Of a DNA stretch of 64,000 nt, positions 17,666 through 39,575 are shown piece after piece. How positions within the stretch are numbered: the first letter of the stretch is position 1; every line of letters starts with the position of its first letter. The DNA comes from Candidatus Sulfomarinibacteraceae bacterium. Its GTDB lineage: Bacteria > Acidobacteriota > Thermoanaerobaculia > Thermoanaerobaculales > Sulfomarinibacteraceae. The notes beneath the pieces were generated by a model. That model searched no databases and had not been told where the DNA came from. It worked only from the letters and a program-made list of their open reading frames with translations. Both the position numbers and the translations under genes were made by a program. The stretch spans positions 134,833 to 198,832 of the forward strand of contig CAVUHO010000003.1 in assembly GCA_963741385.1 (NCBI GenBank). The letters are read 5' to 3'.

Positions 17666-17687
17666 CGATCGCACGAAAACGAGAAAA

Positions 17688-22150: not shown

Positions 22151-22181
22151 CTACGGCCTGATGCCAGGGAGGTCCCGTCGA

Positions 22182-24015: not shown

Positions 24016-24023
24016 GAGGAGCC

Positions 24024-24749
24024 ATGAAGAGGCAAGCGGTTCTCGTGGTCGACGACGAGAAGAACATCCGTCTGACAGCGGCCCGGTCGTTGCGGCCGCT
24101 CGAGGTGCAGATCGAGGCGGCGGTCAACGGAGAGGAGGCCCTTGCGAAGCTCGGCCAGCAGCCGTTCGACCTGGTTTTCCTGGATCTGAAGATGCCCGGT
24201 ATGGGTGGAATGGAGGTTCTGCGCCGGATCAGGAGCAACTGGCCGCAGGTGCGGGTCGTCATCATCACCGCCCACGGAACGATCGACACAGCGGTCGAGG
24301 CGATCAAGCTGGGAGCGAGCGATTTCCTGCAGAAACCCTTCAGCGCCAACGAGATCCGAGACGTCGCCAGGGCGTCGCTCGAACACGTTCAGTCGCCTCG
24401 TGAGGGCGCGGTCGACAGTCGCTCCCTGCTCGAGCTTGTCAGACGCCACATCGCAAACCGGGATCTCGCGGCCGCTCGAGAAACCGTGTGCCGAGTGATC
24501 GCGGCGGACCCGACGGAGGTGGAGGCGTACAACCTGCTCGGTGCGCTGCTGGAGACGAATGGTGACTGGTTGGGCGCCCAGAAGTTCTACCGGGCCGCGC
24601 TCGACATGGACCCGACCTTCAAACCGGCGCAGGCGAACCTCGAGCGCACGACCTCCTGGAGTAAATCGGGCGAAATCCAGCTCGGCGCCGATCAGGGAGA
24701 CGCCGGCACTCCGCAGGCGACGCCTCGGGGGGGCCGAGATGAAGACTGA
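24024..24749 (+). CDS. Response regulator with REC and a TPR-like C-terminal domain
   Basis: ATG at 24024 after AGGAGGA. REC motifs VLVVDDE, DLVFLDLKMPGMGG and ITAHG...KLGASDFLQKP. The C-terminus carries TPR-like helices (EAYNLLGALLETNGDWLGAQKFYRAALDMDP). Confidence 0.85.
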   Translation: MKRQAVLVVDDEKNIRLTAARSLRPLEVQIEAAVNGEEALAKLGQQPFDLVFLDLKMPGMGGMEVLRRIRSNWPQVRVVIITAHGTIDTAVEAIKLGASDFLQKPFSANEIRDVARASLEHVQSPREGAVDSRSLLELVRRHIANRDLAAARETVCRVIAADPTEVEAYNLLGALLETNGDWLGAQKFYRAALDMDPTFKPAQANLERTTSWSKSGEIQLGADQGDAGTPQATPRGGRDED

Positions 24750-25179
24750 CCGTTACATCGTCGTTGTCGGATGCGGGCGATTGGGCTCGCTCCTCGCGAA
24801 TCGCCTGAGCCGCGACGGGAACGCGCTCGTCGTCATCGACCGCGACAGGGCGACGTTCGACGACCTGTCCCTCGAGTACAGCGGCTTTCGCGTCGAAGGC
24901 GACGCGACCCGGCTCGCCGTGCTCAACCAGGCAAAGGTCGGGAACGCCGATGTCCTGATCGCGACCACCCACCAGGACAACGTCAACCTGATGGTCGCCC
25001 AGGTTGCTCGTCGGATCTTCGGCGTCGCCACTGTTCTTGCCAGGGTTTTCGACCCCAAGAGAGAGGAGGTCTACTCCCGGTTGGGCATCGACACCGTGTC
25101 GCCGATCTCGTTGGCTGCGGAGAGGTTCTTGACGTCGATTGACTCAGGGGGGATCGCGACCAATGGAGCCTCACTATGA
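24739..25179 (+). CDS. TrkA-N (RCK NAD-binding) domain protein
   Basis: ATG at 24739 overlaps the end of the upstream gene. YIVVVGCGRLGSLLA Rossmann motif. 146 aa, N-domain only. Confidence 0.8.
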   Translation: MKTDRYIVVVGCGRLGSLLANRLSRDGNALVVIDRDRATFDDLSLEYSGFRVEGDATRLAVLNQAKVGNADVLIATTHQDNVNLMVAQVARRIFGVATVLARVFDPKREEVYSRLGIDTVSPISLAAERFLTSIDSGGIATNGASL

Positions 25180-25838
25180 GGGTGCTCATTGTCGGCGGCG
25201 GGAAAACGCTCTACTTCCTCTGCCGGAGCTTCACTGCCAAGGGGTACGAGGTCGTCGTGGTCAACCGCGACCGCGAGGAGTGCGCCCAGATGGCCCGTGA
25301 ATTGAGGGCGGTCGTGGTCGAAGGTGACGCGAGCGACGCCGGCATCCTCGAGGAGGCCGGCGCGAGAGTGGCAGACGTCGTCCTCGCCATCACCCCCAAC
25401 GACCAGGACAACCTGGTCATCTGTCAGCTCGCCTCACTCCAGTTCGAGGTGCCACGGGTCCTGGCCCTGGCGAATGACCCGGAGAACGCCCGGATTTTCG
25501 AAGAGCTTGGGGTTTCAGCGTTTTCGACCACGAAGATCGTGAGCAATCTGATCGAACAGCGGGCGGCGGTGGAACAGATCACGAACCTGTTGCCGGTCGG
25601 CGAGGGGCTGGTCAACGTCACGGAGATCGTGCTGGAGGCCGATTCCCCGGTCGCCGGGAAAGCGCTCAAGGACATCATGCTGCCCGAGAACGCTCTGATT
25701 GCAATCGTCATCCGCGGAGGCAAGCCGATCGTTCCACGGGGCACCAGCGTATTGGCAGCGCGCGATCGTCTGGTCCTTGTGACCTTACCCGAAAACCACG
25801 GCCCGGTTGTGAAGGCCCTCACCGGCGAGCGGATCTGA
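25176..25838 (+). CDS. trkA: Trk/Ktr K+ uptake regulatory subunit (RCK N+C)
   Basis: 220-aa ORF with RVLIVGGGKTLYFL Rossmann motif and a C-terminal TrkA-C pattern (VTEIVLEADSPVAGKALKDIMLPENALIAIVIRGGKPIVPRG). ATGA overlap with the upstream gene. Confidence 0.85.
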   Translation: MRVLIVGGGKTLYFLCRSFTAKGYEVVVVNRDREECAQMARELRAVVVEGDASDAGILEEAGARVADVVLAITPNDQDNLVICQLASLQFEVPRVLALANDPENARIFEELGVSAFSTTKIVSNLIEQRAAVEQITNLLPVGEGLVNVTEIVLEADSPVAGKALKDIMLPENALIAIVIRGGKPIVPRGTSVLAARDRLVLVTLPENHGPVVKALTGERI

Positions 25839-25850
25839 AGGGGAATCGTC

Positions 25851-27341
25851 GTGCGCGAAAGGGAGCACCTCCGTTTGCGTTATCGCGCGATCGCGTCCTT
25901 CGTCGGGCCCATTCTGGTGGCGGCCGGCGTGGTGATGATGTTGCCGCTCCTGATCCTCCCGAGCCACCCGGAGGAGGTACTTCGGGCACCGGCGTTCGTC
26001 GTTCCGGCCGCCGGTCTGATCGTCGTCGGCGGCCTGTGCCACAGAGGCATTCGCCGTCCCGCCGGTATCGTGCTGTCGATCCAGGAGGGGGGCATCATCG
26101 TGGTGATCACCTGGATCGTGGTCATTCTCGTGTCAGCCTTGCCGTTCGTGTGGCTGTCAGGTCTCACATTTTCGCGGGCGGTGTTCGAAGCGGTGAGCGG
26201 GTGGACCACGACCGGGCTTTCGGTCGTCGACGTCAACACTGCGGGCCCCCTGATCCTCCTCTGGCGAAGCGTCATGCAGCTGGCCGGCGGAGCGGGGTTC
26301 GCCATCATCATGATGTCGTCGATTCTCGGACCCACCGGGGTCGGTTTCGCCACGGCCGAGGGCAGGAGCGACCAGCTCGTTCCCCACGTCCGCGCGTCGG
26401 CACGTCTCGTCCTCGCCATCTACTCCGTGTATGCGGTGGCCGGCGTCCTGGCCTATCGGCTGGCCGGCATGTCGTCCTTCGACGCGGTCAACCATGCGTT
26501 CGCGGCGATCTCCACCGGCGGTTTCTCCACGCGCGCGCAGAGCATCGGCTACTGGGATTCCGTGGCTGTCGAGGCAGTGACGTTGCCGCTGATGATTCTC
26601 GGCAACCTCAGCTTTGTTACGGCGTGGTTCCTTGTGCGCGCAAAGCTCCGTTCGGTTGCGAGAAACGGCGAGGTCCGGCTGCTGGCGATCGTGGTTCCCC
26701 TCGCCGCGGCCATGATGTTCTTCCTGACCTGTCGGACGATATACCCTCAGCTTGGGAAATCGATTCGGGTGGCGGTGTTCGAGACGGTCACTGCACTCAC
26801 AACGACAGGTTTCTCGACTGTCAGCTACGCCGACTGGAACGCTTCCGGCATCCTCCTGATGATCGCCTTGATGCTGATCGGCGGCGGCACCTGTTCGACT
26901 GCGGGTGGCATCAAACAGTTTCGGGTGCACCTCCTGGCCAGCACTCTGGTGTGGGACCTCAAACGAGCGCTCATGCCGCGCACGGCGGTCGTGGCGCGTC
27001 CCGTTTGGGAGGGCGACCAGCGGGTCTTCGTGGACGATGCGAGGGTGCGACAGGTATCGACCTTCGTCTCCCTGTACCTGATGTCGTTCGTCGTTGGCAC
27101 GATGGTCCTGTGCGCCTGTGGCTACAGCCTGGGCGAATCACTGTTCGAGTTCGCATCCGCCCTCGGAACGGTCGGGTTGTCGGTCGGGGTGACGTCTCCC
27201 AACATGCCGGACGTCGCGCTCTGGGTAGAGGCTGTCGGGATGTTTCTCGGTCGGTTGGAGTTCATGGTCGTGATCGTGAGTGCGCTCAAGCTCGCCAAAG
27301 ACATGCGTCGCGCAATGGCGAGAGAATCCCACGGCAGCTGA
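25851..27341 (+). CDS. trkH: TrkH/KtrB-family K+ transporter membrane subunit
   Basis: 496-aa multi-TM ORF (GTG start) with loop motifs SGWTTTGLSV, STGGFST, LTTTGFST and GGIKQFR. Confidence 0.85.
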   Translation: MREREHLRLRYRAIASFVGPILVAAGVVMMLPLLILPSHPEEVLRAPAFVVPAAGLIVVGGLCHRGIRRPAGIVLSIQEGGIIVVITWIVVILVSALPFVWLSGLTFSRAVFEAVSGWTTTGLSVVDVNTAGPLILLWRSVMQLAGGAGFAIIMMSSILGPTGVGFATAEGRSDQLVPHVRASARLVLAIYSVYAVAGVLAYRLAGMSSFDAVNHAFAAISTGGFSTRAQSIGYWDSVAVEAVTLPLMILGNLSFVTAWFLVRAKLRSVARNGEVRLLAIVVPLAAAMMFFLTCRTIYPQLGKSIRVAVFETVTALTTTGFSTVSYADWNASGILLMIALMLIGGGTCSTAGGIKQFRVHLLASTLVWDLKRALMPRTAVVARPVWEGDQRVFVDDARVRQVSTFVSLYLMSFVVGTMVLCACGYSLGESLFEFASALGTVGLSVGVTSPNMPDVALWVEAVGMFLGRLEFMVVIVSALKLAKDMRRAMARESHGS

Positions 27342-27345
27342 TGCC

Positions 27346-27969
27346 ATGTGCCTCGATACCCGCGTGACCCGCGAACCCAGGGTGCGAGCCCTTTGGGTCC
27401 TGGTGTGCGACCCGGGCGGCGCCAGCGACGGCAGGCCGTCACCGGGCAAAGACGAATGGGTTCACAGCGCGGTCCACTGTCTGCACCGGGCGGTGGACGG
27501 CGCGCATGACGTGGTCGTTGTCTGCTTCGGCGATGCATCGATCGGGAATCGAGCTGCATTGGTGGAACTGTGCGCCGCACTGAAGCAGAACTCTCATACC
27601 AGGGAGCGCCCCGTGCTCGCGTTGATCAGAGCGCGACATCGAGGACTGATCGAGGATCTGGAACGGGCGCAGGTCGATTTCGTTTGCGTCGTGGGAGAGG
27701 CCGATCTGGACCCGGCCGCCGTGCGGGCGATCCTCCAGGAGGTGGGGCCGGACGACGAGCTGCCACGTTTCCTCGACACACTCTGTCCGTTGATTCACTA
27801 CTGCGCCGATGACGCCGAGCACGAGCTTGCGGTGTGCGGGGGGTACCTGGACCGGCTCGTGCTGGGGGGTAATCGTTTGCGTCGTATCTGCGAGACCCGT
27901 GAACATCTCCGCTGCGAGTACTTTCTGAGTCCCAAGCCCAAACGAACGCGCCGGGCCGGTCACAGTTGA
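27346..27969 (+). CDS. Hypothetical protein with a receiver-like N-terminal pattern and a Cys-rich C-terminus
   Basis: ATG at 27346 within ORF 27280..27969. It has the codon bias of its neighbours. C-terminal cysteines: CPLIHYC...CGG...C...C. No recognised family. Confidence 0.45.
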   Translation: MCLDTRVTREPRVRALWVLVCDPGGASDGRPSPGKDEWVHSAVHCLHRAVDGAHDVVVVCFGDASIGNRAALVELCAALKQNSHTRERPVLALIRARHRGLIEDLERAQVDFVCVVGEADLDPAAVRAILQEVGPDDELPRFLDTLCPLIHYCADDAEHELAVCGGYLDRLVLGGNRLRRICETREHLRCEYFLSPKPKRTRRAGHS

Positions 27970-28023
27970 TCGGCGCCACGAACCCTGTTGCTGCATGAGC
28001 TGTCTGAAATCGGGGCAGATCGA

Positions 28024-28135
28024 TGCCAGGAGAAACGTCGTCAACTTTCTTGATCGTTGAGAGGAACATTGTCGGGAGAGCTGCGCGAGTCTCGGGGTGG
28101 CGAAGCAAACAAAGTTAAGAAAGTTTCTCCTGGCA
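28024..28135 (+). mobile_element. 112-bp MITE-like element, copy A
   Basis: Perfect 13-bp terminal inverted repeats TGCCAGGAGAAAC...GTTTCTCCTGGCA. Near-identical copies lie at 30350..30461 (same orientation) and 39454..39565 (inverted). All are followed by CCGATA. Confidence 0.8.
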
Positions 28136-28339
28136 CCGATACTGCGCGGCGTCGTGGTCGGCCGCAAGAACCACTATGGCTCGAAGTCGAAACGAGGCAC
28201 CGAGGTCGTGGCGCTCTTCTACACCCTCTTCGAAACCGCGAAGCTGAGCCAGATCGACCCGCGTGCCTACGTCACCCTGGCGGCGCACCGCGCCATCGCC
28301 GAGCACGGCGCAATCACCCTGCCCTCAGACCTCTCCTGA
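28136..28339 (+). pseudogene. IS66-family transposase C-terminal remnant
   Basis: The translation LRGVVVGRKNHYGSKSKRGTEVVALFYTLFETAKLSQIDPRAYV matches the conserved C-terminal GRKN...AKL..(I/V)(D/N)P..YL block of IS66 transposases. The N-terminal 400 aa or more are absent, and the fragment abuts MITE copy A. Confidence 0.65.
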
Positions 28340-28610
28340 TCTGCCTCGACTCAGATTCCAAGCACTCCCATCTGCGCCTGGCAAGACGGGGTAGGGCGAG
28401 GGCGTACGTTTGAATGAGGCAACCGCTGTTACCCCAAATCGAAGAACGGCACGGATAAAATAGCCTCCCTCGAATAGTGTGTCATTTTGCAACATCATTT
28501 CACTAGATCGCTGCCTCTCTAGCCTTAATCAATAACTGTTCTCAAATCTGTCAAACCATTTGACGCTATAGAGTAGAATTGCCCAACAAATAATCTGTAG
28601 GAGTTGGCTT

Positions 28611-29228
28611 ATGAGGTTTTTCCTGTTGGCCATCATCGCGGCGATCACCTTGGTCGGCCCAAATCATATTGCAGTCGCACAAGACGCTGAAATGCCGGTT
28701 CCTGGACTGGTGGTAAAGGACGCTGACGGAAAGGTGATGGGGCAGGTGGACGGGTTCTTGCCAGGGACTTCGGGTACGCTCTATCCAGTCGTTGTTTTCA
28801 ATATTGAAGGGAGTCTCGCCTTCTTAGTCTATCGGCCCTATGGTCTGATCGACGGAGTAGCGCACGCAGCTGGAAACTTGGGCGGTCCCACCGTTTATTT
28901 TTCAGGCTCCGACTGCACAGGGAATTCATACGTCAATATTGTTCACCCGGATGGAGTCGAAGCACAGTCCGGATATGCCTATGGCGTAGGTGGGCCAGAT
29001 CCGACTTCAGGGGAATACAAACTGTACCGCTCCAACACGCTGGCAGCCGGCATGTCCTTCGTGACCTCGAAATGGGAAGGTGGTACCTGCAGGAACTATG
29101 GCCCAACAGACCCGGACGTACTTTCCGCAGAGGAAGTTGTTCCCAACCCCCTCGCCGGTTTCCACGGCCCGACAACCGCCAACCCCGAACGCGTGCTGAC
29201 CATTGAGGGTGGCACGAGGCTTCCGTAA
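28611..29228 (+). CDS. Secreted hypothetical protein (paralog pair, member 1)
   Basis: 205-aa ORF after GGAG with signal peptide MRFFLLAIIAAITLVGPNHIAVAQ. The C-terminal 33 aa (SAEEVVPNPLAGFHGPTTANPERVLTIEGGTRLP) are nearly identical to the next gene. Lower G+C than the flanks. Confidence 0.7.
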   Translation: MRFFLLAIIAAITLVGPNHIAVAQDAEMPVPGLVVKDADGKVMGQVDGFLPGTSGTLYPVVVFNIEGSLAFLVYRPYGLIDGVAHAAGNLGGPTVYFSGSDCTGNSYVNIVHPDGVEAQSGYAYGVGGPDPTSGEYKLYRSNTLAAGMSFVTSKWEGGTCRNYGPTDPDVLSAEEVVPNPLAGFHGPTTANPERVLTIEGGTRLP

Positions 29229-29243
29229 AGAAAGGAGAATGCT

Positions 29244-29828
29244 ATGAGGTCATTTCTTTTCACCTTGGCAGCCATCTCTTTCCTGTTAACCCCAAGCCAA
29301 AGCGCGGATGCCCAAAGCGCAGAAATGCCGTTGCCGATTGCTGTCGTGAAGGACGCGGACGGGAAGTTGATTGCTCAAATCGTCGATATTGGGCCTAATG
29401 AGGGATCCGATCCCAAAGTACTACTCAACATAGGTGGCACCCCTGTCCCTTTTAGAGTTTCACCTCTCAAGGGGGTGTTTGAATCTCAAAGATTTGCCTA
29501 TTTCCCCTTTGAAAATTGCAGTGGTAGCCCAGCCATAACCCCTCCCCTAGCCATTGGTTGGGACTCCTTTTCTCAAACGAGTTTTGCGGTGGTTGGTCCG
29601 GACCCTGACTCTGGGACGTACAAGGTCTATCGATCGACTTCGCCAACTCCCGTGGCGTTTTCCCCTCTTTCCTATTGGATTGACGGATCCTGCGATGGCA
29701 TAACTGGGCAGACTTTGCTGTCTCCTGCAGAGGAAGTTGTTCCCAACCCCCTCGCAGGCTTCCACGGTCCGACAACCGCCAACCCCGAACGTGTATGGAC
29801 GATCGAGGGCGGCACGAGGCTCCCATGA
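29244..29828 (+). CDS. Secreted hypothetical protein (paralog pair, member 2)
   Basis: 194-aa ORF after AGGAGAA with signal peptide MRSFLFTLAAISFLLTPSQSADAQ. The N-terminal motif AEMP.P..VVKDADGK and the C-terminal block are shared with 28611..29228. Confidence 0.7.
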   Translation: MRSFLFTLAAISFLLTPSQSADAQSAEMPLPIAVVKDADGKLIAQIVDIGPNEGSDPKVLLNIGGTPVPFRVSPLKGVFESQRFAYFPFENCSGSPAITPPLAIGWDSFSQTSFAVVGPDPDSGTYKVYRSTSPTPVAFSPLSYWIDGSCDGITGQTLLSPAEEVVPNPLAGFHGPTTANPERVWTIEGGTRLP

Positions 29829-30295
29829 TGGACGCCAAACACCCAACCCACATCATCTGGAAACTGATTCCCCTGGTCGGCTTCATCCTTATTGCCGGAG
29901 TCATCCCCGCCGAAAGTGAAACCTGCAACGTCCCCTCCTCCAGCTATCCCTCAATCCAATCCGCCGTCAACGTCATCAACTGCACCGAGATCGTACTGAC
30001 GTCCGGCAACTTCTTCGGTGATGTCACCATCGGTCGTACGCTGACGGTTCAAGGGGTATCCAGTGCCTCAACCACCGTGTTTGGGAAAGTGACGGTCTCG
30101 GGTTCAGATACCCAGGCCACGCTCAAGGGACTGAAGATCGCAGTCGGTCCTGAAGATCTTCCCCACAATGGATTGGTGGTTGTGGGTGATGCTGAGGTGA
30201 TTCCTGATGACCTTGTGATTGGATCGACTGATTTGATCTTCGAGGATGGTTTTGAGCGCGGGAATACGACGGCTTGGTCGAACACGGTGTCCTAA
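29825..30295 (+). CDS. Small secreted or membrane-anchored protein sharing N- and C-terminal modules with the giant surface protein
   Basis: ATGA overlap with the upstream stop. A hydrophobic N-terminus is followed by SYPSIQSAVNVINCTEIVLTSGNFFGDV (compare DYTTIQEAVNNASPGDEIVVDDGSYDESV in 3449..9166). The C-terminus is DLIFEDGFERGNTTAWSNTVS (compare DLIFSDGFESGGTTMWSLTTP). Confidence 0.65.
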   Translation: MMDAKHPTHIIWKLIPLVGFILIAGVIPAESETCNVPSSSYPSIQSAVNVINCTEIVLTSGNFFGDVTIGRTLTVQGVSSASTTVFGKVTVSGSDTQATLKGLKIAVGPEDLPHNGLVVVGDAEVIPDDLVIGSTDLIFEDGFERGNTTAWSNTVS

Positions 30296-30349
30296 GGTTT
30301 TGGATTGGAGAACGTGCCAATGAGGCATTCCCATAGTGGTGCCTAGTGG

Positions 30350-30461
30350 TGCCAGGAGAAACGTTGTTAACTTTCTTGATCGTTGAGAGGAACATTGTCG
30401 GGAAAGCTGCGCGAGTCTCGGGGTGGCGAAGCAAACAAAGTTAAAAAAGTTTCTCCTGGCA
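30350..30461 (+). mobile_element. 112-bp MITE-like element, copy B
   Basis: Same 13-bp TIRs and internal sequence as copy A, with a few substitutions. Same orientation. Confidence 0.8.
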
Positions 30462-30496
30462 CCGATATAGAGTACTACTAAGCCGCATCGGCATCA

Positions 30497-30555
30497 GTGC
30501 CAGGTACATAGTTACGGAGTTGTGAAATGTAACTGCGGAACTCCGTACCTGGCAC
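30497..30555. repeat. 59-bp REP-like imperfect palindrome R1
   Basis: GTGCCAGGTAC...GTACCTGGCAC ends. Aligns along its full length to the reverse complement of R2 (32597..32655). It lies 3 nt beyond the stop of the 30559..32454 gene. Confidence 0.75.
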
Positions 30556-30558
30556 CGA

Positions 30559-32454
30559 TTAGGGAGTCCCGCCGGTTGCGGCGACGCGACGGCCGACCCG
30601 GCGCGGCGCCGGGTTGAGCCCGAGTGCCCTCTTGATCCGGTTGCCGTCCGCCAACGAGATCCCCGCCGAAGGGATGACGATGGTCTGGTCGTCACCGCCC
30701 ATCGGCGGCAGGCCCTGCGGCTGGTTGTTGACAATGATCGCCGCCACGGCGCCCGCATCTTGTGCGTTCTTCACCTTTTCGACGAACAGGCACGTACCGC
30801 GGTCGATGACGGCGATCTTACCCGTGATCTCGCTGGCGTTGACCAGCGGTTCGCAACCCAGGATCGGCGCATTCGAGCCGTCGCGGACCACGGCCAGATC
30901 TCCGGAGACCCCCACAACGCTCACCGGCGGCCCGAACTGGGCCGTCTGTACCGCGTAACCCCCAGCCAGGCTCGGAGGTGAGTTGATGAGAAGCCGCGGG
31001 GCGTTGCCGAGAATCTGAGGCGCTGCATCGACAGAGGCCGGCCCATCCCAGACCAACCGCCCGGTGTTGACGGCGGAGGTCCGACGTTCGTCGTTGGTCA
31101 TGACGTTCCAGTGCAGACCGATCTCCGAGTCGAAGGTGTAGACGCTGTAGATGCCGGGTTGCCGCGGGAGGCCGGCAAAAAACGGCAGCGACCCGGTGCT
31201 GGGATCAACGAAGCTCTGAAACCCCAGCCCGTGCGCGATCTCGTGGAGGGCCACCATGGCGAAGGAGGCCTGGCCGCTCGGCGTGTTGCCGTCCAAACCA
31301 TAGTAGAAGCGGTAGGACGGCGCCAGGCAGCCCTCGTCAATTCGGCTGTTGAAGTTGGCCACAACGTCGCCGGTGTTCGAGGGCCGGTTATTTTCGGTCG
31401 TGCTGAGGTTTTCGCCCGCCAGGGCTTCGGCGAGAGCGCCGGAATACCAGGTTCCCTGGCGAGGGGCGTTCGCGAAATCGGAAAACAGGTAGCGCGTACC
31501 GGCCGCCGCCAGAACCGCCCCTTCATCGGGATCGCAGTCGAACTCGTCGAAGGCTGCGTCAATGTTGATCTCGATCTCGCTGCCGAGGAGAGTCCCCCAG
31601 ACGTCCGCAGCCCACTGCAAAGCGGCAAGCCGCTGTCCACCAACAGTGGTCCCTCCCGGGTTGGCGGGAGACTCGGGGACAACGGTGGCATCGTTGAAGC
31701 CTTCGCCACTGGAGTCTTGAACCCTGATGGTCACGGTAGAGGAGCCGGCGGGCCAGCCAATGTCCTGGAAAAGCGGGAGCGTGAGGTCGACCTCGCCGAA
31801 GCCGACGCCCGGCGACGCGGTCGGCTCCATCAGAAGGTCAGGGGTGGCCGAAAGGTCCCAGTGGGAAATCGAGGAGCCCAGCTCGAGCGGATCCGGGTTG
31901 TAGAGCAACGGCCGCCCCAGCGTGTCGGCGCCGGCCAGACGAGTCGGGTCGATGGCGAGGCTCGCGGAGACCTCGGCCGCCTTGAAGGACAGCTGCGACG
32001 GTGGCGCGACCGCCAACAGCCCGAGGGAGAGCGGGACATCGATTCCGGCCTTTGCCGAACCGAGGCCCATCAGCTTTTCCACCGCTTGCACATGGTCAAC
32101 ACACGACGTCGCGAACGAGCCGTCCGCTCGCACCTGGACCATGAAGACGTGCCGAAAGCGACCGTCGAGGTCAACCCCTCTCCCGCCGTTGTCGAGATCG
32201 AAGACCTGCAGGCCATCAGTTGAACGGCTGAGGGCGTTCATGATGGCGCCCGACAGCGGGCCAGATTCCTCGCGAGGTTCCGCTGGAACAACCTGATTGG
32301 GCCCGTCATCAGTCGCGGCTCTCACGACCGAAGGAGCGCCGTCGGGACCCGGCGATGCGGCCGCCACTCCCGCGAGCGGCACCACACAGATGGCGATGCA
32401 GCACAGTATGGTCACTCGGAAACGGAGATTGACTCCAGCGTGCACTCGTTTCAT
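30559..32454 (-). CDS. Secreted zinc metalloprotease-like protein with HExxHxxG motif and a C-terminal PA (protease-associated) domain
   Basis: 631-aa ORF with signal peptide ...CVVPLAGVAAASP. VALHEIAHGLGF motif. PA-domain pattern GKIAVIDRGTCLFVEKVKNAQDAGAVAAIIVNN. Confidence 0.75.
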   Translation of the reverse strand: MKRVHAGVNLRFRVTILCCIAICVVPLAGVAAASPGPDGAPSVVRAATDDGPNQVVPAEPREESGPLSGAIMNALSRSTDGLQVFDLDNGGRGVDLDGRFRHVFMVQVRADGSFATSCVDHVQAVEKLMGLGSAKAGIDVPLSLGLLAVAPPSQLSFKAAEVSASLAIDPTRLAGADTLGRPLLYNPDPLELGSSISHWDLSATPDLLMEPTASPGVGFGEVDLTLPLFQDIGWPAGSSTVTIRVQDSSGEGFNDATVVPESPANPGGTTVGGQRLAALQWAADVWGTLLGSEIEINIDAAFDEFDCDPDEGAVLAAAGTRYLFSDFANAPRQGTWYSGALAEALAGENLSTTENNRPSNTGDVVANFNSRIDEGCLAPSYRFYYGLDGNTPSGQASFAMVALHEIAHGLGFQSFVDPSTGSLPFFAGLPRQPGIYSVYTFDSEIGLHWNVMTNDERRTSAVNTGRLVWDGPASVDAAPQILGNAPRLLINSPPSLAGGYAVQTAQFGPPVSVVGVSGDLAVVRDGSNAPILGCEPLVNASEITGKIAVIDRGTCLFVEKVKNAQDAGAVAAIIVNNQPQGLPPMGGDDQTIVIPSAGISLADGNRIKRALGLNPAPRRVGRRVAATGGTP

Positions 32455-32596
32455 TTCAAACTCCTCGACGACCCCATGTCAGCATACTCAAACACGGCTC
32501 ACTCTGGGAACCACACGAACGGCATCTCGAATTTCATCCCCTCACAACGTTGTCACGCATTCGAAGCCCCGCAAGGGCGTCGAATGAATGCAATGG

Positions 32597-32655
32597 GTGC
32601 CAGGTCCGGAGTTACGCAGTTACAGATCACAACTCCGTAACTCCGTACCTGGCAC
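32597..32655. repeat. 59-bp REP-like imperfect palindrome R2 (inverted relative to R1)
   Basis: Its reverse complement aligns to R1 with a handful of substitutions. It lies 143 nt upstream of the start of the 30559..32454 gene and is followed by CGAT, like R1 and the MITEs. Confidence 0.75.
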
Positions 32656-32903
32656 CGATGTTCTGCCACCATGCTTTCGTGTGTGGCGACTTTGCCGGAA
32701 CTGGCGCCTTCGAGACCCCACGCGATTGCGTTGGCGAACCGGACGCGTTCGGTCAGCGAATCAAACACGGCGGGGGAAAGGAGCACGCAGGCCGCGCGGC
32801 CGGCACCGAAACCGATCCCACCCAAGCCAACCGCCGCGTGGCGATCCTCATCAAGGACAAGGCCAAGTGACCTCGACCCGGAGGGCCGGCTGGGCAACGC
32901 CTC

Positions 32904-35900
32904 TCAGCCCGGCGGTCTGCCCCGCCCCAGGCTGACGAAGAACCGTCCGCCGGTCATCGCGGGATCGTCCGGATAGCCGAGAGCCTCGAAGTCGAGGCGC
33001 CGCTCGACGCCGGGGTAGACCTTTCGGGCATGCTCGGGACGGTCCATCCCCTTGGCGGCACGGTGGCAGCGCACGCAGTTGGCGGCCTCGACGCTGTGGC
33101 AGTCGGTGCACCCCAGGGCCGTCACGGCAGGACCGACCCCGTGGTGAAGCCCTGTGTAAAGGGTTGTCTCCACCCACTCGAAGCGGCCCGAGTACTCGAG
33201 CCCCATGGCCTTCATGCCGTCTCTGATCGACCGCTCCCAGCTGAAGTCCGCCCAGTAGTCCGCCGACAGCTTCGGTATGGCGAGCACACGCGATTCGGCG
33301 TCGACCGGTTGGATTGCGGTATGGGCCTTGAACGGGAAGATGCGCGCCGCCGGGTTTCGCTTGTCCCCGGACGGTGGGTTGAGGAGAACGCCGCGCGAAG
33401 AGTTGACCTTCTCTCCGACCAGGGTCGCGCGGCGGCTGCCGTCGAACCACAGGTACACCGGCACCTGGTCCATGCCCCAGCGAAGGGTCCCGAAGCGGCG
33501 GTCGTAGGTCGGCATGCCGTAGCGGTCCAGCTCCTCCACCCTGTCCTCGCCCGCCACCGAGTAGTCCCGGTGCAGCAGGGTGGGTGTGGCGCGCGCGAAC
33601 GCGGGAATGTGGCAGGTCTCGCAGGCGATGCTGCGGACGTGGTCGTCCAGGTGCTGCCCCAGCATGCCGACGACACCGTGCGGCGTGGAACCGTGGCACT
33701 GCTCGCAGGACACTCGCCCCTCCATTGCCGGGGCGGTCATGGACATACCGGCGATGCGGTGGTGAGTCGTCGTGTGGCAGTCCTGGCAGCGCATGTTGCG
33801 CCTGCCCATATGCTGATCGAGGTCTGCGGACGGATCGGCAAGCTGCGGCTCGAGGTCCCCGTGCTTGGCGTTGGGCGCGCCGCCACTCTGGAAGTGGCAG
33901 GACCCGCAGGTCGCGCGTGACGGACGACCGACCTTGCGGGCGACCGCCACCAGGTCGACCTCCGGCAACGGCATGCCGGCCTGCAGAGGGTCCTTGCGGT
34001 AGGTGCCCGTGGTGTCGTGGCAGACCAGGCAGTCGATGTTGGATGGATCGGTGAAGTCGAAGCCCTCGTCGACCCAGCCGTAGCCGATGTGGCAGGTCGC
34101 ACAGGCCTGGGGGTTGGAGCCGATGGCGATGCAGTAGTTGTTGACCATGAGCTGCAGGCTGATGTCGGTGCGGTGCTGGTAGCCGACGAGGGTCGGCGAC
34201 TGGCCCTTCCAGTTCCAGTGCGCGGTCACCAAGAGGTCGTCGCCGACGCGGGAGTGGCACGCCAGGCAGGCACGGGTAGTCTCCTGCGGGGAGGGCCGCT
34301 CCGGCAGCTCGACGAGGAGGCTGTGGTCGGGCGTCCACGGATGGTGGCACGAGCTGCACTCGGTGGGCGCCGGGGCGGGCTGCATGCGGCGCTCATGGCA
34401 GCCGATGCACTGGCGGTGGTACGCGCCCTTGAGCCCGAGACGCGCAGGGGCGTCCTCCTCGTTGGGCATGCCGTGGCAACGAGCGCAGGACTGCGGCGGG
34501 TTGTCCGCCATGTCCTCGTGGCAGCCGGAACAGGCGCCGCCGATGGGCACGTCGATGGACTCGTGGAGCTCGACAATGTCCTCGCCGACCCGGTCGTCGT
34601 CGTCCCATGAGTAACGGTGGTGGCAGACGCCGCAGTCCCCCCCGTTCAGCTCGTCGTGAATGCGGTGGGAGAAGGCCACCGGCTCATAGTCGTCCGAGGC
34701 GGCGTTCAGCATCGGGTTGGAGAGGACGTAAACTCTCCTGTACCTATCGGGTCGCAGCGGGTACGCATCTCTCGTCGCCTCCACGTGGACGGGTTCGGCG
34801 GCCGTGACCCGCTGAACTTCGGCCACGGTCTCTCGGGAGGCCGCAATCGCAGATCGGTGCACCAGAGAGTACGTGAGGACGAAACCGAGAAGCACCGCGA
34901 CGGCCGAGGCCCGGATCACCCAGGTCCACCGCGACGGCACGGTGCGCGCTCGTTCCTCGCGAAGACTCGCAAGCTGCGCGCTGGTAGCCGGGACGTAGCC
35001 CGGGAGGATGGGGAAGAAGGTCACCAGCAGCCGGTAGCAGAACAGGATGCTGGAGACGATGGCGATGGTCATGGCGATCTCGCCGATGGACGGGAAGTAT
35101 GTCGTGGTGGAGTACGGAGGGTTGTAGCCCACGAGGAACACGTTGATCCGGTTGAGGATCACACCGAAGATGATGAGGGCGATCGCAAAGAACAGCCAGC
35201 CCATGGACCGCCGCACCGCCTTGTTGAGCAGGAGAAGGAAGGGGGCGACCACGCCGATCAGGATTTCGACGACCAGGGCAATCGTCGCACCCGGGTTGTC
35301 GAGGAAATCGATCTGGTTGTGGCGGACGACGAGGTCTCCGATCTTCACCACACCGTAGGCCGCCAGGAACCAGGGAATGATGCGCGCCAGAGGTGTCAGC
35401 AGCTCCATTTCCGCCTTGCGACCGAAGCTGATGTTGGCGTAAATGGACTCCAGAATGACCATCGGGAAACCGACCATGAGTGCCGACAGCAGGAAGAGCA
35501 GAGGCAGGATCGAGGTGTCCCACAGCGCGCTCATTTTGGTGGTGGAGATCAACATCAAGGTGCCGAGAGAGGACTGGTGCATGCAGGACAGCACCACGCC
35601 TGCTACGACGAAAATCGGCAGAACGATGTTCACCCACGAGTGCAGGGCGTCCACGGGCTTCTCGAGGCGGTGCAGAAACCGTGCTCCCGTGGAGTCCTCG
35701 GCAATCCGGTCCTTGAGCCCCTCCAGAATCGAGGGACTCATCTCGACGCTCAGAATCACCAGATAAAAGGTGACGCACATGGCCACCTCGAAAAGCACCG
35801 AGTTGCCCTGCCAGTTGAACAGAGGCCGCCACGAATTCCAATAGCGGCCGAGATCGAAGAGCAGAGCAATGGCAACCCACAGGTAGCCCAGGAATGCTGT

Positions 35901-36185
35901 CAGAAGCGCTGGGCGCAGCAGCGCCCGGTATTTCCTGCGGCCGAAGATCTCCACCAGGGCGGCGGTGAGGAACCCGCCGGCGGCGAGGGCGACGCCGCAG
36001 GCCACGTCGAAAGCGATCCAAATACCCCAGGGATTGTGATTGTCGAGATTGGTCACCGACCCCAACCCGAGGAACAGACGGGTGATGCCGAAGGAAAAGC
36101 CGATTCCCATGAGGATCAGCAGGGTGAGCGTGCCGAAGGTGAAAAACGGCTTGGTGACGCGATGGGGACGGTCGTTGGCACTCAT
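32904..36185 (-). CDS. NrfD/PsrC-like polytopic quinol-interacting membrane protein fused to a 14-haem c-type cytochrome domain
   Basis: 1093-aa ORF. The N-terminal 430 aa or so are NrfD-like TM helices (NPWGIWIAFDVACGVALAAGGF...). The C-terminal 620 aa or so contain 14 CxxCH motifs, counted in the translation. The last 8-9 haems resemble the octahaem tetrathionate-reductase-type family by recollection (IDCLVCHDTTGTYRK, CGSCHFQSGG). ATGA overlap with the upstream FeS gene. Confidence 0.8.
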   Translation of the reverse strand: MSANDRPHRVTKPFFTFGTLTLLILMGIGFSFGITRLFLGLGSVTNLDNHNPWGIWIAFDVACGVALAAGGFLTAALVEIFGRRKYRALLRPALLTAFLGYLWVAIALLFDLGRYWNSWRPLFNWQGNSVLFEVAMCVTFYLVILSVEMSPSILEGLKDRIAEDSTGARFLHRLEKPVDALHSWVNIVLPIFVVAGVVLSCMHQSSLGTLMLISTTKMSALWDTSILPLLFLLSALMVGFPMVILESIYANISFGRKAEMELLTPLARIIPWFLAAYGVVKIGDLVVRHNQIDFLDNPGATIALVVEILIGVVAPFLLLLNKAVRRSMGWLFFAIALIIFGVILNRINVFLVGYNPPYSTTTYFPSIGEIAMTIAIVSSILFCYRLLVTFFPILPGYVPATSAQLASLREERARTVPSRWTWVIRASAVAVLLGFVLTYSLVHRSAIAASRETVAEVQRVTAAEPVHVEATRDAYPLRPDRYRRVYVLSNPMLNAASDDYEPVAFSHRIHDELNGGDCGVCHHRYSWDDDDRVGEDIVELHESIDVPIGGACSGCHEDMADNPPQSCARCHGMPNEEDAPARLGLKGAYHRQCIGCHERRMQPAPAPTECSSCHHPWTPDHSLLVELPERPSPQETTRACLACHSRVGDDLLVTAHWNWKGQSPTLVGYQHRTDISLQLMVNNYCIAIGSNPQACATCHIGYGWVDEGFDFTDPSNIDCLVCHDTTGTYRKDPLQAGMPLPEVDLVAVARKVGRPSRATCGSCHFQSGGAPNAKHGDLEPQLADPSADLDQHMGRRNMRCQDCHTTTHHRIAGMSMTAPAMEGRVSCEQCHGSTPHGVVGMLGQHLDDHVRSIACETCHIPAFARATPTLLHRDYSVAGEDRVEELDRYGMPTYDRRFGTLRWGMDQVPVYLWFDGSRRATLVGEKVNSSRGVLLNPPSGDKRNPAARIFPFKAHTAIQPVDAESRVLAIPKLSADYWADFSWERSIRDGMKAMGLEYSGRFEWVETTLYTGLHHGVGPAVTALGCTDCHSVEAANCVRCHRAAKGMDRPEHARKVYPGVERRLDFEALGYPDDPAMTGGRFFVSLGRGRPPG

Positions 36186-37138
36186 CGCTCGTTCCCCTCT
36201 GCTGCCCGCTCACCGGCCTCAGCGGCCTCCTCACCGTCGTCGGCTTCCGCGTGGCGATGGTTGAACCACATGATCCCGGCAAGAGCGCCATACAACGCGA
36301 CCGGGAGAATGCCATACTTGAAGATGCCGTGCTGGATGGCCTCCGTGCGCAATGCCGGTGCTCTCTCGGGCAGCGGCAGCAGGCCGATCTCTTCCACCGG
36401 CCGGCCAGTCAGGTAGAGCCAACCCGTTCCGCCCACCTCCTGCTCCCCATAGACCTTCTGCACATAGCGGTCCGGCCGCCCCTCCAGGCGCTGGTGGGCG
36501 ATCGCCAGGAGATCGGCGCGTTTGCCGGCAACGAGGGTCTCGGTCGGACAGGCTGCTGCGCACGCCGGATCAGCGCCGCCGCCGGCTGTCGTGCCCGTGC
36601 ACAGCTCGCACTTTCGCACTCTGGGCGCCAGGGCCGTGTCGTACTCGTAGGCCAGCACCTCGAACGGGCAGGCCACCATACAGTAGCGGCAGCCGATGCA
36701 CACGGTGGGGTCGTAGACCACGGCACCGTCAGGCGCCTTGGTCAACGCGCCGACGATGCAGGCCGACACGCACGACGGGATGAGACAGTGCATGCACTGA
36801 ACCTTGGCGAAGGTCACCGGCAGCTCGGTCTGGTCCGGCGACGGGCTCCCTCGGAACTGGTTGACGACAGTGAAGGCGTTCTCGGAAGGCCGACGGAAGG
36901 TGTGCAACACCTCGCGATCCGAGAAGGAGCCGGAGGTGCGCGGCAGGAGGTTGCGCCGATTGCACGCCTCCTCACACTTCCGACACCCGATGCACAGCGT
37001 TGTGTCGACGAGGACACCGGCGTAGTCCGGGGAAACGGTGTGTCTCTCTGCGGCGCCCTCGGCGGGTGCCGGCGCCGTGCCGCTGACTACTGCCGCTGCG
37101 CCGAGGCCCACGAAAGCGCGGCGATCGAGTCGCTTCAT
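36182..37138 (-). CDS. Tat-exported 4x[4Fe-4S] ferredoxin-type subunit (NrfC/PsrB/HybA-like) with a C-terminal membrane anchor
   Basis: 318-aa ORF. Twin-arginine signal MKRLDRRAFVGLGAAA. Cluster motifs CIGCRKCEEAC, CMHCLIPSCVSAC, CIGCRYCMVACP and CELC...CAAACP. C-terminal hydrophobic helix ILPVALYGALAGIMWF. Confidence 0.85.
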   Translation of the reverse strand: MKRLDRRAFVGLGAAAVVSGTAPAPAEGAAERHTVSPDYAGVLVDTTLCIGCRKCEEACNRRNLLPRTSGSFSDREVLHTFRRPSENAFTVVNQFRGSPSPDQTELPVTFAKVQCMHCLIPSCVSACIVGALTKAPDGAVVYDPTVCIGCRYCMVACPFEVLAYEYDTALAPRVRKCELCTGTTAGGGADPACAAACPTETLVAGKRADLLAIAHQRLEGRPDRYVQKVYGEQEVGGTGWLYLTGRPVEEIGLLPLPERAPALRTEAIQHGIFKYGILPVALYGALAGIMWFNHRHAEADDGEEAAEAGERAAEGNER

Positions 37139-37157
37139 GGCATTTCCCTCCGAATCA

Positions 37158-37195
37158 ATTGTAATATCTTTTGCTCACTTGTGAATCTGCTCACA
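37158..37195 (-). promoter_or_regulatory. Candidate sigma-70 promoter overlapped by a perfect CRP-type palindrome
   Basis: Read on the minus strand: TGTGA-gcagat-TCACA (37180..37195), which equals TGTGA-N6-TCACA. -35 TTCACA, a 16-bp spacer, -10 TACAAT (37158..37163), then GGAGGG and the ATG at 37138. Confidence 0.5.
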
Positions 37196-37198
37196 AAA

Positions 37199-38342
37199 TA
37201 AAAGTGCCATAAAAGTGCCATAAAAGTGCCAGTAAAAGTGCCAGGTACGGTGGTTATGATGTTATAATGTCCTTACCTCAATTGGTGGAGATGGGGGATG
37301 GGGCGTCGACCGCGGATACTTTTGCCTGGTGGTATTTACCACGTGTACAACCGGACGTCCCGTGGCGAGGACGTTTTCCGTGAGGACGAAGAGGCCGATC
37401 GGCTCGAGGGCCTCATCTCTGCGACGAAGGCGCGAGACGACTTCCAGATCCTCGCCTGGTGCATCATGTCGAATCACTACCACCTCGCGGTGCGGATGGG
37501 AGAGGTCCCATTGTCACGATCGATGCGAACGATCCACCATAGGTTCGCACAGAGCTTCAACGGTCGGCACCGCGTCTTCGGTCCGTTCTGGCAGGGCCGT
37601 TTCCGGTCGAAGTTCGTGGGCGACGACGAGTATGTGAGACGGCTCATCGCATACATCCATCTCAATCCGGTGACCGCCGGAATCGTGAGAGATGCGGCGC
37701 AGTATCGGTGGTGTGGGCACCGCGAGGTGGTCGGTAGGGCGGCGGGACGTCGTCTGGTCGATGTCAACGAGACGCTGATGTCGTATCACCCGAAGCGAAG
37801 GGATGCGCTGGCGGGGTACCGCGAGGCGATGTCATCGACGCTGGCTGAGGAATGGCGGTCGGAAGGCCCGGGGCACCTTCCCTGGTGGAAGGTCGGTCGC
37901 CCGAAGGGTGGCGATGACGAGCGGGAGATCGAGGTCGACGAGGCGAAGCCTCGGATCCAGATGAACGGGCGGAGCAACGTCGAGATGAGGCCGAGAATGG
38001 AGATCGCCAGGTTCATCGAATTGGGTGCGGACGCCTGTGGCGTTATGGCAGCCGACTTGAGGAGCAACAGGCGGGGATCGCCGGTGGTGGAGGCGCGAGA
38101 GATCCTGGCCTGGCTTGGGACAATACTGTACGGGTTCAAGGTCAAAGAGATCGCGGCAGGATTCGACAAGTACGGAGAGACGGCGAGTCGATTGGTGAGC
38201 AGAGCGGCGCGGCGTAGGATGGACGATGTGGGCTTCGCGGACCGGATCCAAAGCGTCGATTCCGCGATCACGAAGGGGGCGACTGGGGTCGAGAAAAAAT
38301 AACATCATAACCACCGTACCTGGTACCTTTTTGGTACCTTTT
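37199..38342 (+). mobile_element. RAYT-type (IS200/IS605-like Y1) transposase unit with perfect 23-bp inverted repeats and 11-bp subterminal tandem repeats
   Basis: Left IR CCAGGTACGGTGGTTATGATGTT (37241..37263) is the exact reverse complement of 38301..38323. Outside the IRs there are four copies of TAAAAGTGCCA on the left (37199..37243) and two of TGGTACCTTTT on the right (38321..38342). Confidence 0.8.
37298..38302 (+). CDS. REP-associated tyrosine transposase-like protein (Y1/HUH) with a C-terminal DnaA-C-like HTH domain
   Basis: 334-aa ORF with GGIYHVYNRTSRGEDVF, the HUH motif SNHYHLAV, FWQGRF and the catalytic Tyr region AYIHLNP. The C-terminal segment REILAWLGTILYGFKVKEIAAGFDKYGETASRLVSRA resembles the DnaA domain IV HTH. 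Confidence 0.8.
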   Translation: MGRRPRILLPGGIYHVYNRTSRGEDVFREDEEADRLEGLISATKARDDFQILAWCIMSNHYHLAVRMGEVPLSRSMRTIHHRFAQSFNGRHRVFGPFWQGRFRSKFVGDDEYVRRLIAYIHLNPVTAGIVRDAAQYRWCGHREVVGRAAGRRLVDVNETLMSYHPKRRDALAGYREAMSSTLAEEWRSEGPGHLPWWKVGRPKGGDDEREIEVDEAKPRIQMNGRSNVEMRPRMEIARFIELGADACGVMAADLRSNRRGSPVVEAREILAWLGTILYGFKVKEIAAGFDKYGETASRLVSRAARRRMDDVGFADRIQSVDSAITKGATGVEKK

Positions 38343-39569
38343 CGCGAGCCCTTCGTGGCCCATGAACGTGTGCCACTGTCGTTCACCATCGGAGTTCAGC
38401 TTGACGGCAAAACCGTTATCCCCTCCACCGTGTGAATGAACGGGCGTTCTCCACGAGGCATCGCTGGCACCACTACTACCGGCATCCTCGATGAAATTCA
38501 GGATGTTGCGGCCGAGAACACCATCGACGACCTCCTGCGGGTACCCACGCTCGGTGAGACGCCGGCCGATCCTCGAGAAAGCATCCTCGCGGTTGAGGCT
38601 GGCCGGCACGTACCTCCCTCCAGCCTGAAGATCGGAGCCGATGCCAACGTGATCGGGACCGAGATGCCCGATCAACTCGGCGATCTGGTCGACCATCAAC
38701 TCCAGTGCATCCGCTTCCGGATCACCTGCCAGCAGATCTGAGGCGTTGAACGACACCCAGACTGATCCGCCGGTCTCCCCGAGCTTCGCCACGACGTCGT
38801 CAGGCAGGTTGAATGCCGTAGGGCTCACCTCAGCGGTGAGGCTGTGGGTCGCGACCACCGGCGCTCTCGATTGTTTGATGATTACCAGTTTCTGCGGATG
38901 ACTCAGGTGGGTGATGTCGATCGAGACGCCGGTTTCATTCATGGCCTCCACGATCCGTTTCCCGAATGGCGTCAATTCGTTCGATCGATCGCCGACACCG
39001 AAGAGCCCGTCGGGGTCCTTCTCCACGAGACCGATGATTCGCACCCCGAGATTTCGAAACCGCTCCACCCTCCCTGGATCTCCATCGAAAATCCTGTCAA
39101 ACCACTCGATGGAGAACAGGAGGCGAAGGTCGTTCTCTGGAGCGCTGCCCGGCTTCTCGTGCGGACCGACGATCGAAAAACCCGCGTCCGTCGCCGCAGC
39201 CCGCCGAAGCTCCGTCATTTCGCTGACAATGCGGGACTCCACATCCGATGTTTTCGATCGGTCGAGGGGCAGTGGAACCACCACCGTATCGATGCCGCGA
39301 GATCGCACTGCCGCGAGCCGTGAGAGGTCCAGCCGGCCGCCCCTAATACCAATGACGTCGTGGTTGTGGCCGTCGACCACCGGGCTCGGCTCGCCCGCGA
39401 TCGCAGGCGGGCACAACGAAAAGACGATCAACGCGGCTGCGTATCGGTATCGGTGCCAGGAGAAACTTTCTGAACTTTGTTTGCGTCGCCACCCCGAGAC
39501 CCGCGCAACTCTCTCGACAATTTTCTTCCTGGCGATCAAGAAAGTTAACAACGTTTCTCCTGGCATCAC
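38268..39569 (-). CDS. Peptidase M19 (membrane dipeptidase) family protein with both ends remodelled by mobile elements
   Basis: M19 motifs DGHNHD, ITHLSH, VVATHS and GIGSDL. The first 38 codons or so lie in MITE copy C and the last 25 codons or so lie in the right end of the RAYT unit. The native start and stop are therefore uncertain. Confidence 0.6.
   Translation of the reverse strand: MMPGETLLTFLIARKKIVERVARVSGWRRKQSSESFSWHRYRYAAALIVFSLCPPAIAGEPSPVVDGHNHDVIGIRGGRLDLSRLAAVRSRGIDTVVVPLPLDRSKTSDVESRIVSEMTELRRAAATDAGFSIVGPHEKPGSAPENDLRLLFSIEWFDRIFDGDPGRVERFRNLGVRIIGLVEKDPDGLFGVGDRSNELTPFGKRIVEAMNETGVSIDITHLSHPQKLVIIKQSRAPVVATHSLTAEVSPTAFNLPDDVVAKLGETGGSVWVSFNASDLLAGDPEADALELMVDQIAELIGHLGPDHVGIGSDLQAGGRYVPASLNREDAFSRIGRRLTERGYPQEVVDGVLGRNILNFIEDAGSSGASDASWRTPVHSHGGGDNGFAVKLNSDGERQWHTFMGHEGLAKRYQKGTRYGGYDVIFSRPQSPPS
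39454..39565 (-). mobile_element. 112-bp MITE-like element, copy C (inverted)
   Basis: Reverse complement of copies A and B, with the same 13-bp TIRs. The CCGATA flank is duplicated (TATCGGTATCGG at 39442..39453). Confidence 0.8.
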
Positions 39570-39575
39570 TAAGTC

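Follow-up and report, generated by a model that had tools for sequence, protein, structure and literature searches.

A probable intact TIRtron with a DnaA-like transposase tail and stacked tip copies in a Sulfomarinibacteraceae genome

RAYT-like genes flanked by inverted repeats have been named TIRYTs and the units that they form TIRtrons (Di Nocera, De Gregorio and Rocco 2013, BMC Genomics 14:522; PMC3733652). That paper describes an especially well-defined acidobacterial group, finds that one genome can have several paralogs and that the repeat families are moderately abundant, and gives the motif GGGGWSAS for 'some' or 'the majority' of the published TIRYT inverted repeats, in which it is not obligatory. 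Quentin, Siguier, Chandler and Fichant (2018, BMC Genomics 19:475; PMC6006769) equated TIRYTs with TnpA-REP subclass 2.1, the largest TnpA-REP subclass, present in 14.9% of strains; in its subgroup 2.1.2 the C-terminus is similar to Bac_DnaA_C (also to HTH_23 or HTH_28), and the GGGGWSAS ends are unlike DnaA boxes. Here we describe such a locus at positions 37199–38342 of a 64,000-nucleotide stretch (the window) from a Candidatus Sulfomarinibacteraceae bacterium (GCA_963741385.1, contig CAVUHO010000003.1, positions 134,833–198,832). Positions without a prefix are those of the window; a prefix such as C3 denotes a contig of the genome.

The locus is very probably an intact, autonomous TIRtron of about 1.1 kb with one TIRYT gene, whose product joins a RAYT-type Y1 HUH nuclease to a helix-turn-helix (HTH) domain of the DnaA domain IV type; the mechanistic steps and the view of its terminal arrays as scars, both set out below, are part of the same interpretation. 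The initial annotation had presented the combination of features as unusual. It is in fact an already published architecture, that of TIRYT/TIRtron (PMC3733652) and of subclass 2.1.2 (PMC6006769), and the window locus belongs to it rather than being a new combination. As in the published TIRtrons (PMC3733652), long terminal inverted repeats stand in place of REPs, with the 3' end of the gene running into the right one; one genome contains solo repeats as well as dimers and clusters, and the paralogs each have their own repeats. A long protein, a Bac_DnaA_C-like C-terminal extension and a gene without typical flanking REPs are shared with subclass 2.1.2 (PMC6006769), and on this domain architecture the enzyme may be assigned to TnpA-Y1/REP subclass 2.1.2. 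The tip of this acidobacterial clade is A-W-N-G-GTGCC-A-GG (GGTACC in a sister family), whereas the published motif (PMC3733652) is GGGGWSAS; a GGGG-type end was seen only in one other subfamily, in relatives (L019–L021). The inner 8–9-bp tandem repeats, the prefix stacks and an extended -10 at the left end are not described in the available part of that paper. No REP-like sequences were found near the published subclass 2.1 genes (PMC6006769), whereas the window genome has REPIN-like doublets of the same ends. New for this clade, at the level of description, are its own conserved tip, the pairing of inner repeats and the reading of the arrays as prefix stacks, which can be followed clearly here; REPIN-like doublets are a further particular of the locus. 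The features of the element are as follows.

37199–37243, plus strand: left tip stack, TAAAAGTGCCA four times (0 of 100 shuffles reach four)
37233–37269, plus strand: left terminal inverted repeat, with TAAAA as the outer 5 nt, the tip GTGCCAGG, then TACGGTGG and two tandem 8-bp repeats
37254–37261, plus strand: inner repeat 1, TTATGATG, a tandem 8-bp unit of the left end
37260–37268, plus strand: extended -10 TGTTATAAT, a perfect TGnTATAAT 29 nt before the ATG, read by eye
37262–37269, plus strand: inner repeat 2, TTATAATG, a tandem 8-bp unit of the left end
37287–37290, plus strand: ribosome-binding site GGAG, read from the sequence
37298–38302, plus strand: TIRYT gene, 334 aa, intact, with Pfam, NCBIfam and alignment support
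37307–37732, plus strand: Y1 HUH nuclease domain, aa 4–145, from NF047646 (aa 4–139) and from 4ER8 by profile and fold
37475–37483, plus strand: HUH residues H60 and H62, invariant in the alignments
37652–37654, plus strand: catalytic Y119 (YIHLNP), invariant in the alignments
37733–37990, plus strand: middle region, aa 146–231, with a conserved PG-LPWW (P191, L194, P195, W196, W197) in the alignments
37991–38284, plus strand: DnaA domain IV-like HTH domain, aa 232–329, from profile, fold and alignment
38299–38331, minus strand: right terminal inverted repeat, perfect complement of 37241–37265, containing the stop codon
38321–38342, minus strand: right tip stack, TGGTACCTTTT twice on the plus strand, equal to one extra 11-nt prefix

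The single long open reading frame of the region (37298–38302, plus strand) is intact and encodes 334 amino acids. That the product is a RAYT-like Y1 enzyme with HUH and catalytic Tyr motifs, as had been proposed from the sequence, is borne out by a Pfam Y1_Tnp match (E = 1.2e-11, aa 13–121), by a score of 88.9 bits against the cut-off of 80 for the NCBIfam model REP_Tyr_transpos (NF047646; REP-associated tyrosine transposase) and by His-60, His-62 and Tyr-119, which are present without exception in both alignments (20 and 50 homologues). A family profile searched against the PDB retrieved E. coli TnpA-REP (RAYT, YafM; 4ER8) with E = 2e-8 over aa 33–145, and a Foldseek search with the AlphaFold (AF2) model (pLDDT, the predicted local distance difference test, 83) matched the same structure with a template-modelling (TM) score of 0.71. 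TnpA-REP is thus the best solved relative of the N-terminal domain by both profile and fold, with HUH and Tyr in common. It differs in being 165 aa long and devoid of an HTH, in recognising a GTAG-tagged REP hairpin and in being single-copy in E. coli.

The Y1_Tnp match, together with the IS608 and ISDra2 transposases among the fold matches (TM 0.57–0.69), would also suit an ordinary insertion sequence of the IS200/IS605 family that moves by same-strand peel-and-paste via sub-terminal hairpins. We give this explanation almost no chance, for the protein scores above a RAYT-specific cut-off and is closest to TnpA-REP, it has about 190 extra residues including the HTH, no tnpB is present, and the ends are long inverted repeats, neither of which has a sub-terminal hairpin. 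Folded as single-stranded DNA (ssDNA), neither end of the full element forms a structure alone (z-scores +0.93 and -0.75), in agreement with the initial annotation, which had taken them for true terminal inverted repeats in place of IS200-type hairpins. IS608 and ISDra2 share with the window element Y1 HUH chemistry, the lack of a target duplication and a likely dependence on ssDNA; their ends are asymmetric, with sub-terminal hairpins and both cuts on one strand, in contrast to the symmetric inverted repeats and hairpin-free ends found here.

Downstream of the nuclease domain, the middle region (aa 146–231) had no match to a known family, and aa 198–209 are predicted to be disordered. The part of the family profile covering aa 220–324 retrieved DnaA domain IV of four organisms from the PDB (2HCB, 1L8Q, 3PVP and 1J1V; E 1e-4 to 8e-4). 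The last 95 residues superimpose on the DNA-binding domains of M. tuberculosis DnaA (3PVP; TM 0.90, root-mean-square deviation 1.4 Å) and E. coli DnaA (1J1V; TM 0.82, 1.7 Å), and the invariant Arg-259 and Arg-267 are aligned with the basic-loop and helix arginines of Aquifex DnaA in a hidden Markov model alignment. The proposal of a DnaA-C-like tail therefore holds despite a sub-threshold Pfam score. DnaA-C similarity is present and no catalytic residue is missing, the two points on which the initial description of the protein hung. Judged from the profiles and the predicted model, the C-terminus is a true DnaA domain IV fold, and the enzyme carries the full HUH/Tyr catalytic set plus both folds. 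The DHTTV segment of DnaA makes base-specific contacts in the 1J1V complex. In the alignment with Aquifex DnaA this segment is replaced by ETASR in the recognition helix of the window protein, and by xxVSRW in its paralogs, so that a DNA specificity different from that of DnaA is expected. The DnaA box TTATCCACA was not found in the ends of the window element.

The ends themselves are marked by an inverted repeat. A pattern search returned a perfect 24-bp repeat (37241–37264 and 38300–38323; 0 in 100 shuffles), which by extension reaches 25 bp (37241–37265 and 38299–38323); imperfect complementarity continues to 47 nt at 81%. The earlier description of perfect 23-bp repeats, the right one lying over the stop codon, was right about the perfect match and the overlap and 2 bp short in length; the TAA (38300–38302) lies within the right arm. 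The right-end tip is a GGTACC variant, AAAAGGTACCAGG on the minus strand, the form that is usual in the sister family. Of the 59 full-length elements that we oriented (10 in this genome, 49 in relatives), nearly all have their own cognate terminal inverted repeats of 25–35 bp, with a tip-to-tip span of 1046–1150 bp. The tip GTGCCAGG or GGTACCAGG is present at 100 of the 118 ends, and these 100 ends gave the consensus A(67%) W(75%) N G(74%) G-T-G/A-C-C-A-G-G-Y. Beyond position -5 the 100 tip-anchored ends show no conservation. TCAC, which precedes several junctions and the left stack of the window, was considered as a target motif; position weights outside -5 are flat, and we make no claim for it.

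Inside the tip, 42 of 99 ends have a unit of 8 or 9 bp that is directly repeated in tandem at 87% identity or more (shuffles: mean 0.9, maximum 4). The sequence of these inner repeats changes from one subfamily to another. The presumed HTH recognition helix varies with the inverted-repeat class and is constant within it: KYGETASRLV is paired with ends in ...GGTATTGATGTTA, KNPDVVSWWA with CTTTAGGAAGTTGGGAAGTTG ends and KHPDVVSRWA with TCAGACGATTCAGACGATT ends. This covariation fits cognate recognition, while being confounded by shared descent. The two tandem 8–9-bp repeats inside each inverted repeat are, from these sequence patterns, likelier HTH sites than the 11-mers, and the candidate HTH target at the left end of the window element is TTATGATGTTATAATG. 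Inner repeat 2 of the left end overlaps the extended -10 TGTTATAAT. Since the candidate HTH sites lie over this promoter element, the protein probably represses its own gene. Most paralogs have a TGnTA..AT-like motif at the equivalent site, after the inner repeats; a scan for sigma-70 consensus promoters gave no hit for the transposase gene and no -35.

Outside the inverted repeats lie the 11-mer arrays, four copies of TAAAAGTGCCA on the left and two of TGGTACCTTTT on the right, numbers that our pattern counts reproduced. They had been described as sub-terminal arrays of a distinct motif. The repeated unit is instead the outermost 11 nt of the inverted repeat, tandemly re-copied outside the end. 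On the left, the prefixes TAAAAGTGCCA (11 nt), TAAAAGTGCCA (11 nt) and TAAAAGTGCCAG (12 nt) are followed by the true terminus from 37233. The final unit on the left and the first on the right already belong to the inverted repeat, of which they form the outermost part, left AAAAGTGCCAGGTACGG... matching AAAAGGTACCAGGTACGG... on the complement of the right end, and the arrays are therefore terminal, not sub-terminal. Across the oriented elements, 25 of 99 ends have one or more further copies of the tip 9-mer (at most one mismatch) in the 58 nt beyond the end (control mean 4.2, maximum 10). Every extra copy is a prefix of the terminus, with a common outer start about 5 nt outside GTGCC, a variable inward length and the next start directly after. 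Unit length ranges from 5 to 27 nt and copy number from 1 to 3, often at one end only; the stack at C6:562518, for example, has prefixes of 6 and 27 nt and that at C6:192099 prefixes of 26 and 9 nt. A metagenome copy of 91% identity, in unrelated surroundings, carries a different stack (11, 6 and 5 nt), and no stack accompanies a 92%-identical copy of the nearest genome. A larger-scale analogue is found at C6:190992–192362, where a full copy is immediately preceded by a second left end that extends through the first 60 codons and matches its neighbour at 100% identity; similar large-scale left-end repeats exist on C4 and in several relatives.

Stacks so variable in unit length and number look like the scar of a process rather than a conserved array of binding sites, and from these sequence comparisons we read the 11-mer arrays as processing scars, not iterons. 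The initial annotation had suggested iteron-like binding sites for the DnaA-like HTH; a related possibility is that the arrays are outward-facing promoters of the sigma-54 type. The left array does stand between the element and the start of the divergent operon (37138). Its minus strand reads TGGCAC-N5-TGGCA three times, with a GG-N10-GC spacing that follows from the 11-bp period, about 60 nt upstream of the respiratory operon, and rpoN is present in the genome (C14:361568–362044). Either function is highly improbable, however, given the unit lengths and copy numbers seen elsewhere in the family, the frequent restriction of stacks to one end, their absence from the 92%-identical copy and the finding that the exact 11-mers are unique to the window locus in the genome; the GGTACC tip variant, seen at the right end and at the level of the order, also breaks the -24 box. 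Since other stacks have other periods, the left stack may at most be an accidental sigma-54-type promoter.

The element had been annotated as single-copy, which did not survive a survey of the whole genome (4.77 Mb, 17 contigs, 64% G+C). The survey found 11 full-length paralogs with 35–90% identity and at least a dozen fragments, some copies being nested, interrupted or decayed. The closest paralog (C3:241693–243561, 90% identity) is disrupted by an insert of 780 bp, with 5 bp duplicated, and a further copy on C15 has 68% identity. The window 24-mer, with up to 4 mismatches, marks two more elements in the genome and, at C3:3721–3973, one internally deleted derivative of 253 bp that belongs to the subfamily of the window element. 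Among 40 related genomes of this order, 34 carry the family, mostly in several copies each, and 739 database homologues were found at E ≤ 1e-10, many with PF01797 plus PF08299 and one named as Thermoanaerobaculales bacterium (Acidobacteriota); an exact-protein lookup found the window copy in no other assembly. Near-identical copies have unrelated flanks and no target duplication, copies are placed at synteny breaks relative to the nearest genome, and one metagenome contig ends exactly at both element tips. As to the insert in the 90%-identical paralog (C3:241854–242632), it interrupts that copy after codon 35 with a duplication of GTCGA; its first ~240 bp are extremely A+T-rich, and an Rfam search of it gave no match.

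Full copies, internally deleted copies and tip-to-tip doublets of 59–120 bp occur together. The initial annotation was also correct in noting related REP and miniature inverted-repeat transposable element (MITE) sequences near the element, which are listed here without an assigned strand.

30349–30462: 114-bp miniature doublet of another subfamily, with GTGCCAGG-AGAAAC... ends; long hairpin, ΔG -29.1, z -6.5
30497–30555: 59-bp tip-to-tip doublet, GTGCCAGGTAC... / ...GTACCTGGCAC; REP-sized hairpin, z -6.8
32597–32655: second 59-bp doublet, of the class of 30497–30555; z -7.8
39448–39570: miniature element of ~120 bp with a GTATCG GTATCG prefix stack, in the dipeptidase 5' end; homology to the closest genome stops at its edge

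The 59- and 114-bp doublets form near-perfect ssDNA hairpins (z -6.5 to -7.8), and each repeat class has 2–16 ends in the genome. Folding of this kind would be expected of a domesticated REPIN-RAYT system, in which a single-copy, vertically inherited and host-maintained RAYT disperses REP/REPIN hairpins without being mobile itself. The NCBIfam name of the protein (REP-associated tyrosine transposase), the E. coli TnpA-REP structure as its best solved relative, the REPIN-like folding of the 59–120-bp doublets and the existence of more short repeat families with a common GTGCC(A/T)GG core all agree with such a system. It is nonetheless very unlikely: the gene is multi-copy, with 11 full and further decayed copies that are partly nested and interrupted; single ends are not palindromic; the tips lack a GTAG tag; the classes have 2–16 ends where tens to hundreds would be expected; and copies sit at synteny breaks, with related copies in different contexts in the nearest genome. 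Among the short repeats of the genome, a 22-bp tip-to-tip mini-palindrome, GTGCCAGGCTGAAGCCAGGCAC, is found at 7 loci (e.g. C10:197125–197146; 0.13 expected), and larger tandem repeat families (periods of 64 and 87 bp, 19–34 members) have a common GTGCCTGGC core.

For the autonomous TIRtron that we favour, the following course of events can be envisaged. In ssDNA the two inverted repeats would pair, turning short doublets into REP-like hairpins and the full element into a panhandle. The duplex-binding HTH domains of a dimer would read both subfamily-specific 8–9-bp repeats, and the Y1 domain would nick at the base of the stem, about 5 nt outside GTGCC, to give a 5'-phosphotyrosine link; HTH sites over the extended -10 would probably let the protein repress its own gene. 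Stacks could then arise in either of two ways. In the route that we prefer, nicking would recur and the 3'-OH would prime short stretches of copying into the element before the tyrosine-linked 5' end is re-ligated; self-insertion into an end followed by recombination between both copies would give the same product. A more specific proposal is tentative and rather improbable: the stacks, from units of 5–27 nt up to a left end plus ~60 codons, may record TIRYT chemistry with opposite-strand nicks at each 5' boundary, inward copying primed by the 3'-OH and re-ligation, a replicative two-strand mechanism enabled by the near-palindromic GGYRCC tip. If true, such an opposite-strand replicative mechanism would set TIRYTs apart from IS608, with its same-strand peel-and-paste, and from RAYTs, with their cleavage of REPs. 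The genus offers a series of eleven diverged paralogs with cognate ends, a sharply conserved tip, paired 8–9-bp candidate HTH sites and miniature hairpin derivatives, a natural source of oligonucleotide substrates for asking how a single-strand HUH nuclease handles inverted-repeat ends.

Several observations weigh against our interpretation. The Bac_DnaA_C score of 19.5 bits is under the Pfam gathering score of 31.5, the published TIRYT motif GGGGWSAS is absent at the ends of the window element, and the covariation of helix and inner repeat carries the confounding by descent mentioned above. Neither the window flanks, compared with 24 genomes of the genus, nor the flanks of 20 elements, joined and compared with the 5 nearest genomes, gave a clean pair of filled and empty sites; usually one flank was conserved, and the sole spanning case was a variable intergenic spacer. 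The exact termini and the lack of a target duplication therefore rest on comparison between copies. Fragments that abut the left end of a heterologous element (C4:15622–15795, L018) do not fit the nick, extend and re-ligate model, and self-insertion with recombination likewise fails where fragments of one subfamily abut the left end of another. Finally, a search of the full-text literature for the names TIRYT and TIRtron returned only the two papers cited above, neither of them experimental, and every mechanistic step given here is inferred.

Shortened copies fall into two classes. In the first (C6:192105–192284, C4:12696–12881, C4:15622–15795 and relatives L018–L021), a left end plus 58–65 codons stops at or just after the first HUH His codon (AATCAC|, AACCAT|, ACTCAC|) and borders directly on the left end of a further element, which in some cases belongs to another subfamily; the rest of the broken gene is absent beyond the right end. 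The second class ends at aa 130–146. A perfect 15-nt intragenic inverted repeat in the window copy (37479–37493 and 37717–37731, the HUH codons against aa 140–145) has arms that coincide with the two regions where shortened copies break. The longest run in 39 other family members is 3–6 nt, and we set the repeat aside as copy-specific or due to chance. A single N-terminal TIRYT fragment (aa 6–90, about 85% identical to the copy at C3:23931) is present in triplicate at C3:10003–10256, C11:432–685 and C12:11534–11787, inside a larger repeated segment in which many neighbouring positions of the three contigs repeat in parallel, a pattern suggestive of a multi-kb duplication or of an assembly repeat.

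The TIRtron is placed between a divergent FeS/multihaem respiratory operon, which starts at 37138 on the minus strand, and a convergent dipeptidase gene. For annotation, the locus can be treated as an ordinary insertion element that supplies the sequence directly upstream of the respiratory operon and alters the 3' end of the dipeptidase reading frame. The gap between element and operon (37158–37197) contains a palindrome of the CRP/FNR type, TGTGA-N6-TCACA, and a promoter-like site on the minus strand, TTCACA-16-TACAAT (10 of 12 matches). Over 38268–39570, the 3' side of the dipeptidase frame runs into the right end of the TIRtron and its 5' start lies within the ~120-bp miniature element at 39448–39570. 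Homology to the nearest genome (G004) breaks at 38471 and 39444, and the G004 dipeptidase start there is a normal MKTVIF.... In G004 the dipeptidase gene is followed within ~200 bp by a homologue of window positions 16447–18693, and about 20 kb of the window (about 18700–38470), comprising the multihaem operon, the TIRtron and three doublets, is missing from that locus.

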